A DNA stretch of 64,000 nt from Mustelus asterias. Lineage: Eukaryota. This document shows, in pieces, positions 8,620 through 11,540 of this stretch (the first letter of the stretch is position 1; each line of letters begins with the position of its first letter). The stretch spans positions 3,782,001 through 3,846,000 of the forward strand of contig NC_135813.1 in the NCBI RefSeq assembly GCF_964213995.1, given 5' to 3'. The notes under the pieces were generated by a model. That model made no database searches, was not told where the DNA came from, and saw only the letters and a list, made by a program, of their open reading frames with translations. Position numbers and translations under genes: made by a program.

Positions 8620-8980
8620 ATGTGGCGGCTCTCGGTGCCTCTGCTGCTGGGCTTGCTGTCCATGGTGAGCGGCCACAATGCCAGTCGGGGCTCCCCCGAC
8701 GAGCTCTTGCTCTGCCGGTCGTGCGGTTTCGAGGTGGCCGCCAGCCGGGATCTCCGGTTCGTGGCCAGCGCCCTGGCTCTGGCTCAGCGGAACGACACAG
8801 TGATCGGCGAGCGCAGGGTCCCGGTGCAGCTCTTCCAGAACCCGCAGGGACTCCGCTTCCAGGTGATCACCTTCAAAAAAGCCGCTGTCCACAGGCACTG
8901 GCCGGCCGATGAGCAGTTCTCCTGGTTCCCCGGGCACTCGTGGACAGTGGCAACTTGCCCCAGGTGTCACAGCCACTTAG
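8620..8980 (+). CDS. Cereblon-like (CULT/Yippee-Mis18 fold) protein with predicted signal peptide, exon 1
   Basis: ATG at 8620; MWRLSVPLLLGLLSMVSG hydrophobic leader; CRSC and CPRC zinc knuckles; FQNPQG and [14 protein letters not shown] match the cereblon thalidomide-binding domain; phase-1 donor G|gtttgt; GC-rich coding bias. Confidence 0.9.
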
Positions 8981-9114
8981 GTTTGTTTGTGTTAGTTTAA
9001 CTCAATGTTTATAGCGGTGCGGCAGTCCCTTCAGTGTCACTTATCTTCATATTTTGTTGTCACAATGAAATATCACCTCGCAGCTTAAACGTGCAGGCAG
9101 AAAGGAAAAATTAA

Positions 9115-9390
9115 TTAGTGGCACAAGTACGTTCACATTAACACTGCAATGAAGTTACTGTGAAAATCCCCTAGTCGCCACACTCCAGTGTCTGTTCGGG
9201 TACACTGAGGGAGAATTTAGCACAGCCAATGCACCTAACAGCACCTCTTTCAGACTGTGGGAGGAAACCGGAGCACCCAGAGGAAACCCACGCAGACACA
9301 GTGAGAACGTGCAGACTCCACACAGACAGTGGCCCAAGCCGGAATCGAACCCAGGTCCCTGGCGCTGTGAGGCAGCAGTGCTAACCACTG
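9115..9390 (-). mobile_element. HE1/V-SINE (alternative tail type)
   Basis: Reverse complement of tRNA head, V-domain and the ...gactaggggattttcacagtaacttcattgcagtgttaatgt tail. Confidence 0.85.
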
Positions 9391-9488
9391 CTGCCTGGCA
9401 AGGGTACTGATTGGGGAACCAGATTAAATGTGCCCACGAACTAATAGTATATACTTAAGGGCTGAATGACCCTACTGTTCCTAAATTA

Positions 9489-9648
9489 TGACGTGGAGAT
9501 GCTGGCAATGCATTGGGGTGGGTACAGAGCTTTCAGAGCACTGCTCCTTCATCATGTTAGTGGCTACTCACTTGATGAAGGAGCACTGCTCAACGCTCGT
9601 GATTCCAAATAAACCTGTTGGACTTTAACCTGGTGTTGTGAGACTTCT
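9489..9648. mobile_element. Fold-back Penelope-terminus element (internally deleted)
   Basis: gagctttcagagcactgctccttcatca / tgatgaaggagcactgctc inverted pair, flanked by the TSD tactgtt(c/t)ctaaatta at 9473-9488 and 9649-9664. Confidence 0.75.
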
Positions 9649-9675
9649 TACTGTTTCTAAATTAAGCATTATTTT

Positions 9676-9973
9676 AGGGTGGCACAGTGGTTAGCACTGC
9701 TGCATCACAGCGCCAGGGACTTGGGTTTGATTCCTGGCTTGGGTCACTGACTGTGCGGAGTTTGCACATTCTCCCTGTGTCTGCGTGGGTTTCCTCCGGG
9801 TGCTCCGGTTTCCTCCCACAGTCTAAAAGACGTGCTGGTTAGGTGCATTGGCCGTGCTAAATTATCCCTCTGTGTACCCGAACGGGCGCCGGGGTGTGGC
9901 GACTAAGGGATTTTCACAGTAACTTCATTGCAGTGTTAGTGTCAGCCTACTTGTGACTAATAAATAAAACTTT
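9676..9973 (+). mobile_element. HE1/V-SINE (alternative tail type)
   Basis: Full head, V-domain and tail ending aataaataaaacttt. Confidence 0.88.
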
Positions 9974-10563
9974 ACTGCAAACTGTTTTCTGACCTCTGAT
10001 TCTATCCCCTTCCCTGGGCAGTCTCATGAGAGTCAGATTGTTTGCAACCACATTGTCCTAGTTGACTTTGAGTGGAATTCTGATCCTTTTCATCACCAAG
10101 GCTGTCTACTTCATGTCTAACGCTCCCTGCCAAATTCACACCTTTATTCCCCCAAGACATGAGTATTTCAATACTCTCCTGGCCAACCTCCAGCTTTCAT
10201 CCTCTGAACTTGAGCTAAACAAATAAACTCTGTTGCCTGCACCCTAACTTGCACCAAGTCCCAATCACCAGACCGCTCTGCTCTCCTGAATTCTTTGTTG
10301 AGTTTATTAGCATTGGCTTACAGTCCATCAGTGGCGTGCCTCATTTTAAAATTCCTACCCCCATGTTCAAATCCCTCCACAGCTCATTTCTGTAACTGGC
10401 TCCACGCCTGCGATTGCGTTCACGTATCTCTAGCCTCTTGTACATCTCACCCCTTTTCTCATTCCTGCCATTTGTGGCTATGCCTAAGTTCTTGAAATTC
10501 AATTCCTAAATCTTTCCACTCCACTCCTCCTTTAAAACCTCCCAACTCTGACCAAGCATTTGG

Positions 10564-11190
10564 GTGGCATGGTGACACGCTGGTTAGCATTGCTGCCTCT
10601 GTGCCAGGGACCTGGGTTCAATTCCAGCCTTAGGTGTGTGGCATTTGCACATTCTCATAAAATCGCAACAGTGCAGAAGGAGACCATTTGGCCCATTTGA
10701 CCTGCACTGACAACAATCCCATCCAGGCCTTATCCCTGTAACCTCACGTATTTACCCCGCTAATCTCCCTGACATTAAAGGTTAATTTAGCATAGCCAAT
10801 TAACCTAACTTGCACCTCTTCAGGAGGAAACCAGAGCACCTGGAGGAAACCCACGCAGACACGAGGAGAATGTGCAAACTCCACACACTGACCCGAGGCC
10901 AGAATTAAACCTGGGTCCCTGGCGCTGTGAGGCAGCAGTGCTAACGACTGTGCCACCGTGCTGCCCTGTATCTGTGTGGGTTTCCTCTGGATGCTGTTTC
11001 CAAAAGATGTGTGGGTTAGGTGAATTGGCCATGGTAAATTGCTCCTTACTATCCAAAGATGTGTATATTTGGGGGATTAGCAGAGTAAATATGTGGGGTT
11101 ATGGGGACAGAGCCTGGGCAACATGCTCTTTGGAGAATCTAGGCAGACTCAATGGACCGAACGGTCTCCTTCTGCACTGTAGGACTCTAA
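10564..11190. mobile_element. Plus-strand HE1 SINE interrupted by a minus-strand HE1 SINE (~10655-10962)
   Basis: The head at 10564-10655 resumes at ~10965 (cctgtatctgtgtgggtttcc), with a complete antisense copy in between. Confidence 0.75.
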
Positions 11191-11385
11191 AATCTGTTCT
11201 AATGTTTCTTCCTTTGGCACGGAGTTATACTCTTTATGCAAAACACCTTTTGATGTTTAATGTTCACTATCAAAAATGCAAGTTGTTACTGTTATAAGAG
11301 ATTGTGTGTGTGTGATAACTAGTTGATAAATTTAGTTCCGTCTATATTCCGTTCATTTTATGTGGATCTTCTTGATGTTTAACAG

Positions 11386-11540
11386 GTTGGTCATTTCAGC
11401 CCAATGTCTGGCCTCAGCATGTTACAGATAAAGAACTTGAAGAATCAGAAGAAACATTTGTTGCATTGATTATAGACAGACTCCTCCAGGAGAATTTTGC
11501 TGCAACGCTTCTCATGGTGCCCAAGTCCTATCGAAGTTGA
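11386..11540 (+). CDS. Cereblon-like CULT protein, exon 2 (not in ORF track)
   Basis: Acceptor tttaacag at 11385. Continues in phase as (G)WSFQPNVWPQHVTDKELEESEETFVALIIDRLLQENFAATLLMVPKSYRS*, completing the HLGWSF motif. Total CDS 516 nt = 171 aa. Confidence 0.88.

Follow-up and report, generated by a model that had tools for sequence, protein, structure and literature searches.

Among the proteins described so far with a CULT domain, cereblon (CRBN) combines it, as its thalidomide-binding domain, with a LON-like domain and a DDB1-binding region; cereblon isoform 4 of Magnetospirillum gryphiswaldense (MsCI4) consists of the single domain; and animal proteins made of a leader and a lone CULT domain have been described as the secreted group II, ranging from placozoans to fishes (Lupas, Zhu, Korycinski 2015, PMC4287342). 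The question of which natural ligand is common to all CULT domains has stood open since 2014-15; in particular, cyclic-imide degrons account for cereblon as an E3 receptor, but not for the existence of ligase-free CULT proteins. The present analysis concerns a gene for such a ligase-free protein, located at positions 8620-11540 of a 64,000-nucleotide stretch (the window) of the shark Mustelus asterias (NC_135813.1, forward strand). The gene is a real, spliced gene; its product is not cereblon, despite the label given by NCBI, and, judged from sequence and predicted fold, is a member of the secreted animal CULT-only family (Lupas 2015 group II) rather than of a new family. The protein is likely to bind a thalidomide-like natural ring outside the cytosol.

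In the literature searched, consisting mostly of open-access papers, only Lupas 2015 was found to deal with this family, and no functional study. The initial annotation, made from the DNA letters only, had given the family as noted before and devoid of an assigned function, and in this it was right, the description dating from 2015; the range that it gave, non-placental animals, is at variance with the published one of placozoans to fishes and with the one frog record found here. The gene and the family being already known, the additions to the literature found are the family-wide sequon, a pocket-less splice form, and the tailed-frog record.

Gene Structure and Transcript Evidence

The gene is composed of the following parts:

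8374..8619, + strand: 5' untranslated region, minimum extent as seen in contigs; the true start site lies outside the contig evidence
8521..8529, + strand: two-codon upstream open reading frame, in frame with the main one
8620..8980, + strand: coding exon 1, with leader, zinc knuckle 1, sequon hairpin, NPxG, W102, W108 and zinc knuckle 2; in a CpG-rich stretch
8620..8673, + strand: putative signal peptide (residues 1-18), with cleavage expected by the -3/-1 rule after V-S-G
8791..8799, + strand: conserved N-glycosylation sequon N58-D-T60
8863..8864, + strand: minor alternative GT donor; one contig in run X16, depth 3.6
8981..11385, + strand: single phase-1 GT-AG intron of 2405 nucleotides, splitting the G121 codon just ahead of the third cage tryptophan
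11386..11540, + strand: coding exon 2, with W122, F124, acidic insert, last strand, conserved C-terminal helix, P-K-S-Y-R-S tail and stop
11568..11573, + strand: AATAAA, candidate polyadenylation signal

Joined across the GT donor at 8981 and the AG acceptor ending at 11385, exons 8620-8980 and 11386-11540 make 516 nucleotides, coding for 171 amino acids and a stop; the product is, letter for letter, NCBI XP_078083699.1 (P0001), the "protein cereblon" of Mustelus asterias. The translated protein carries all the elements first read in it, that is the leader, CRSC at residues 32-35, CPRC at 113-116, NPQG from N74, the tryptophan stretch with W102, W108 and W122, and sequons at N20 and N58. The main ATG has an A at -3, and an in-frame stop lies 19 codons 5' of it (8563-8565).

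Four public runs from three studies, of guessed or unrecorded type, were aligned to window positions 8250-9110, a span that ended inside the intron at 9110, and the exon junction was read from the loose-end letters of the contigs. In all four runs the contigs end at the donor and go on with exon-2 letters, intron depth being zero within 8250-9110; given this exact GT-AG skip, and since no intronless copy of the gene was found in the genome, the contigs are best read as spliced RNA, which bears out the predicted 171-residue reading frame and its 8980/11386 junction. On the 5' side, the contigs begin at 8374-8421 and run colinearly through the in-frame stop at 8563-8565; no upstream coding exon was seen in the four runs, whose contigs have no 5' loose end and leave the true start out of view. 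The LON-like domain and the DDB1-binding connector are absent both from the 171 residues and from the contig-covered 5' region, and the stand-alone CULT domain initially proposed thus holds against the possibility, raised together with it, of an upstream exon adding these parts.

The ATG of the upstream open reading frame (8521) is altered in related runs X1 and X4 and is therefore not conserved. When the minor donor at 8863 is joined to exon 2, the frame is shifted and a 108-residue form results, which lacks all three tryptophans as well as knuckle 2; the same pocket-less form is also annotated in another shark, Stegostoma (P0039).

Family Membership and Separation from Cereblon

Relatives were collected by a search with exon 1 (42 among 76 candidates), by a search with alignment A1 (252 at E<=0.001 among 8000 scored, 120 of them listed), and by a search of a representative library (572 matches at E<=1e-10, 150 listed); names were looked up for 30 proteins, mostly from the last list. 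Among the matches listed, those named in the exon-1 and A1 searches belong to sharks, rays, bowfin, gar, sturgeon, teleosts (many under the name si:ch211-51h9.7), coelacanth, Ciona, and Lingula, and the named representatives to a sponge, corals, molluscs, horseshoe crab, insects, echinoderms, amphioxus, a tunicate, and one frog, land insects and one land snail being included; no reptile, bird or mammal is found among the named matches listed (120 of 252, most representatives carrying no name). The published range of the family is thereby extended by one sponge and one tailed-frog record.

The CULT relationship is not due to chance, because of the 252 relatives at E<=0.001 and of a structural match reaching Z 15.2 (see below); phmmer pairs the shark protein with MsCI4 and with CRBN at E values of about 1e-10, Pfam PF03226 is reached at E 0.013, below the Pfam cut-off, and a Pfam scan of exon 1 alone gave nothing useful. 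The protein shows the CULT domain by sequence and by fold, two CxxC motifs, NPxG, three tryptophans, and a domain that fills the 171 residues, together with a predicted N-terminal signal and clustering with the secreted CULT proteins of invertebrates. Animal CULT-only proteins have the same leader and lone domain, with the same two CxxC, NPxG and three tryptophans, and the named fish orthologues are 55-93% identical to it, with no defining difference; a single full copy of the gene was found in the shark genome.

A search with A1 for longer fused forms gave one match among 8000 candidates, of CRBN type, their absence here being weak evidence. P0131 and P0186, considered as tandem CULT proteins, were discarded as CRBN-type proteins with repeated fragments, which look like assembly or annotation artefacts. 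P0259, P0262, and P0266 are divergent Asn/Lys-rich proteins with a leader and a CULT domain, without sequon and tail, and may fall outside the animal group.

The shark protein is held distinct from cereblon because CRBN-type exons lie on another contig and because the two fall in separate clades. Two CRBN-type exons, the LON exons not among them, were identified at G000:C3:108.506 Mb, and their intron follows the WFPG motif instead of preceding the third tryptophan. In a 26-row tree (built without bacterial rows, after a motif filter had removed 2 rows, and with a bootstrap that had not settled fully), the shark protein and 21 other secreted-type rows stand apart from the 4 CRBN-type rows (support 100/99); its place is among relatives from corals, molluscs, and insects (100/99), and the topology pairing it with the CRBN of its own genome is rejected (approximately unbiased test, p-AU 0.0095). 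As regards the phylogeny first suggested, the distinction from CRBN has been obtained, while bacterial CULT proteins stay outside the tree.

Entry into the Secretory Pathway

Leader and sequon were counted in a close set (125 of the 129 proteins of the exon-1 and A1 searches, mostly from fishes/teleosts and not independent) and in a distant set (108 of 144 new representatives), both restricted to proteins of 120-260 residues with two CxxC motifs. With a 10-residue mean Kyte-Doolittle (KD) hydropathy of at least 2.0 as threshold, and after removal of 3 close and 22 distant rows that had a short leader or lacked Met, 113/122 close and 76/86 distant rows have a hydrophobic leader, against 1/122 and 3/86 for control stretches of the same length inside the domain; the shark leader reaches 2.42. 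The column-58 sequon is found in every close relative (125/125) and in 81 of the 108 distant ones, and Asn at this column is always accompanied by S/T at +2 (125/125, 81/81), compared with 36/418 and 74/760 for other Asn. Allowing for the relatedness of the rows, the conserved N58 sequon is the best support in this analysis for the protein entering the endoplasmic reticulum (ER); of the two sequons initially noted, both are present, N58 alone being family-wide and N20 restricted to the shark and ray rows of A1.

On the conservation of leader and sequon, entry into the secretory pathway is predicted with high confidence, and to this extent the ER-lumenal or extracellular location first proposed has gained strong comparative support. 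None of the 95 close full-length rows shows a KDEL-type end or a 19-residue hydrophobic C-terminal stretch (membrane anchor), which favours secretion over retention, and a sand-fly salivary protein has been cited as experimental support for secretion (Lupas 2015, PMC4287342). That a zinc beta-tent with a four-cysteine site is compatible with ER targeting is known from MsrB3 (excerpt of PMC7475093); indeed, the ER methionine-R-sulfoxide reductase MsrB3A also joins a zinc beta-tent to a signal peptide and deals with protein damage in the secretory pathway. The likeness is only one of working, since the enzyme MsrB3 carries a catalytic cysteine together with a KDEL-like signal, and the shark protein has neither: its four cysteines all belong to the zinc knuckles, with no extra catalytic one as in MsrB, and exactly four from the first knuckle on are found in 92/95 close relatives.

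A pair formed by a small residue and Cys at the leader end, just before the domain, occurs in 109/125 close rows (bony fishes) and 12/92 distant ones and not in this shark; in bony fishes a free Cys might thereby remain close to the N-terminus of the mature protein.

Fold and Pocket

AlphaFold models of the shark protein have a predicted local distance difference test score (pLDDT) of 83 with 39 rows and of 89 with 104 rows. The best structural matches are MsCI4 and the CRBN domain: the first model, for residues 26-159, superposes on MsCI4 with Z 15.2 and 2.5 as root-mean-square deviation over 106 aligned residues, the expected likeness to CRBN's thalidomide-binding domain is recovered at Z 15.0 (9odr), and the top Foldseek match, 4v31, contains deoxyuridine. 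A homodimer prediction (two copies of residues 26-171 with zinc, alignment unused) scored 0.00 and is uninformative either way. MsCI4, 32% identical, differs in having neither sequon nor C-terminal helix-and-tail in the aligned region, and Y101 in place of F124; moreover, its ligand binding has been measured, while that of the shark protein is predicted from sequence and model.

The residues equivalent to those of CRBN are kept at N74/P75 (N351/P352), W102/W108/W122 (W380/W386/W400), V110 (V388), H119 (H397), and F124 (F402), and changed at L78 (Y355), F80 (H357), Q99 (E377), F100 (H378), and H106 (Y384); the mapping initially given is correct, and the retention of H397 and the changes of Y355 and Y384 are additions to it. 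The tryptophan cage is intact, as first read, here and across the family, all three tryptophans occurring in 92/95 close and 85/98 distant full-length rows, and F80 is nearly fixed (124/125 close, 100/108 distant). The substitutions of H378, H357, and E377 by F, F, and Q, also correctly read, are evidence neither against ring binding nor for a new specificity: H378 of CRBN binds via its backbone and corresponds to Phe77 in MsCI4 (excerpt of PMC8900816), MsCI4 likewise has F at the H357 position, and the CRBN of this genome has Q at the E377 position, so that two of the changes are common to a drug-binding bacterial protein and the third to the shark's own cereblon.

The natural degron GLUL-cN contacts W380, W386, W400, N351, H397, Y355, and H357 in CRBN (excerpt of bioRxiv 10.1101/2025.03.24.645050); five of these seven are identical in the shark protein (the three tryptophans, N351, and H397), Y355 and H357 being replaced by L and F. 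MsCI4 and CRBN are reported to bind uridine in the manner of thalidomide, nothing past the ring being recognized selectively (excerpt of PMC4449219), and the human domain to bind cortisone about as well as thalidomide, and lactams too, in an in vitro screen described in a preprint (excerpt of bioRxiv 10.64898/2026.08.28.747849).

Selection, Tail, and the Frog Record

In a comparison with two related runs, the domain shows four distinct changes, all of them synonymous (under neutrality, p is about 0.003, in a tiny sample), and the linker holds both of the amino-acid changes. Among close rows, the core has a column conservation of 0.80, the tail (residues 156-171) one of 0.81, and leader and linker have 0.40-0.52; a proline stands five residues from the end in 86/95 rows and, together with surface positions S50 and Q70, is conserved in the CULT-only family. 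Being conserved, located beyond the part shared with MsCI4 and modelled with low confidence, the C-terminal tail suggests a partner-binding element.

The tailed frog Ascaphus truei is represented by P0148, recorded as a hypothetical protein, which falls in the vertebrate clade (100/99; one named record), with a branch of 0.81 compared to 0.01-0.35 for the others. It keeps leader, sequon, four cysteines, and three tryptophans, and has D for N351, a change shared with record P0179, R for H397 and a shortened tail. This sequence suggests that the gene may have decayed in early tetrapods, rather than stopped at the fishes.

Proposed Mechanism and Alternatives

The most likely mechanism is that of a glycosylated, secreted zinc beta-tent protein predicted to cage a glutarimide-type ring, with no ubiquitin-ligase role. 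Starting from a spliced gene, with no upstream coding exon in the contigs and no LON or DDB1-binding part in its product, the leader would very probably be cleaved near G18 and N58 glycosylated; the four cysteines are predicted to bind zinc and the chain to fold as the beta-tent of cereblon; and, by analogy with MsCI4 and CRBN, W102/W108/W122 and F124 would quite probably cage a cyclic imide or uracil-like ring by means of backbone hydrogen bonds. The last step is the weakest and is put forward tentatively: N74 and H119 may hold a peptide beside the ring, the ligand being a C-terminal aspartimide or glutarimide, and the conserved tail may pass the complex to a partner for clearance. Our leading guess for the natural ligand, albeit a rather uncertain one, is thus the cyclic imide that marks damaged proteins at their cut end, with uridine nucleotides next. 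MsCI4 is probably able to bind cyclic-imide peptides. No mention of MsCI4-peptide structures is made in PMC12117711. In its broadest and rather unlikely form, the proposal would be that of an extracytosolic counterpart of cereblon, present from sponges to fishes, which reads cyclic-imide damage as a glycosylated secreted protein and delivers broken proteins to clearance via its tail, decayed in early tetrapods, is missing from mammals, and would be a second thalidomide target in zebrafish.

Several observations weigh against this picture. Both Y355 and H357 of CRBN, here L and F, are needed for full GLUL-cN binding (excerpt of bioRxiv 10.1101/2025.03.24.645050), and, the same cage binding uridine, cortisone, and lactams, the sequence of the pocket cannot name the ligand. 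The words "extracellular", "secreted", "plasma", and "endoplasmic" are absent from the excerpt of PMC11725857, which deals with the origin of the imides. As for location, S/T at column 60 persists in 11/27 rows without Asn58, and part of the conservation may be structural; PabSP126, presumably the sand-fly protein cited by Lupas, has two transcripts and no protein-detected mark (excerpt of PMC2714351), so that this single experimental pointer to secretion may derive from transcripts alone. Finally, the lack of a KDEL-type signal or C-terminal anchor in these sequences leaves no visible link to a disposal route.

The alternative with the best claim, although clearly a minority one, keeps location and fold and makes the ligand a uracil compound (uridine, uridine mono- or diphosphate (UMP, UDP), or a UDP-sugar), for which the protein would act as a sensor, buffer, or carrier, either extracellularly or within the ER/Golgi lumen. 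In the lumen, UDP-sugars are plentiful metabolites; the uridine binding of MsCI4 and CRBN and the deoxyuridine held in 4v31 agree with this idea, and UDP-glucose and uridine compounds have been reported to act through cereblon (excerpt of PMC9418190). No conserved phosphate-binding residue was identified, however, the authors themselves found no biological context for uridine recognition (excerpt of PMC4449219), and the conserved tail is explained no better than by the cyclic-imide reading. It is less probable that the protein carries or scavenges some other small ring outside the cell, such as a steroid A-ring, a lactam, an acetyl-type metabolite, or a waterborne compound, and is less needed on land: the cortisone and lactam binding of the human domain and the restriction of named vertebrate matches to fishes and one frog with an eroded rim fit this view, but the family is kept in land insects, a land snail, and a sponge. 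Insects, snail, and sponge do not share vertebrate steroid signalling, and the steroid result comes from the preprint's in vitro screen.

About as improbable is an adaptor or chaperone, and no binder of imide rings, in which the cage either has a structural part or takes up a protein partner, by way of a side chain or modified residue of some secretory protein. The empty cage does take side chains of neighbours in crystals and refolds (excerpt of PMC4449219), and S50, Q70, and the tail proline are conserved on the surface; on the other hand, the residues of cage and rim that the three core CULT groups have in common are all retained jointly, as would be expected if they shared one ligand type. 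Very little room is left for a truncated or misannotated cereblon, or for a decoy in the cytosol with a leader other than a signal peptide: the NCBI label and the short leader, in which no 19-residue window reaches KD 1.5, speak for it, yet it is largely refuted by the CRBN-type exons on contig C3 with their intron elsewhere, by the tree (100/99; p-AU 0.0095), by the in-frame stop upstream within the contigs, and by the conservation of leader and sequon.

Significance

A secreted, ligase-free CULT protein with the same cage offers a clean test of what this cage evolved to read; zebrafish and insects have one copy each of the CULT-only gene, open to knockout. If thalidomide binds, the work on teratogenicity in fish has a second binder unaccounted for, and a small secreted cage protein could also serve as a soluble reagent for imide ligands. 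CULT-only genes are widely mislabelled "protein cereblon" in the annotation of fishes and invertebrates.

Genomic Neighbourhood and Minor Observations

The CULT gene lies between an HR1 exon of a PKN kinase gene and SET, followed by DYNC2I2/WDR34:

86-400, also L010 near 4660-4900, - strand: PKN kinase HR1-domain exons, pointing away from the CULT gene
about 16250-30300, - strand: SET gene; exon 20672-20842 matches human SET at E 1e-33
30448-61903, + strand: DYNC2I2/WDR34 exons, first exon E 2e-16; head to head with SET

SET has an acidic-tail exon near 19930-20100 and a long 3' untranslated region, and a CpG island (29750-30750) lies between it and DYNC2I2/WDR34. In human, DYNC2I2, SET, and PKN3 are presumably neighbours with no CULT gene between them, and by this synteny we take the PKN gene beside the CULT gene to be PKN3. 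A bidirectional promoter shared with the PKN gene was considered and is not supported, the nearest other CpG-rich stretch (2001-2500) being about 6 kb off.

Elsewhere in the genome, G000:C20:50186846-50186998 (L003/L011) is a 154-nucleotide copy, 82% identical, of window positions 11420-11573, covering a portion of exon 2 and the beginning of the 3' untranslated region; it has an in-frame stop and no exon-1 match within the 10 kb fetched, and represents a decayed fragment. A weak match to the tail at G000:C17:55215515-55215613 (70% identity over residues 142-171, E 5.4) is possibly another. Within the window, a tandem repeat, its unit measuring about 33 nucleotides, occupies 1265-2176 and gives long open frames on both strands; the stretches 12639-13901, 35253-36107, and 41633-42640 resemble, by eye, the reverse-transcriptase ends of long interspersed nuclear elements, and the intron of the CULT gene contains, again by eye, several copies of a short interspersed repeat.

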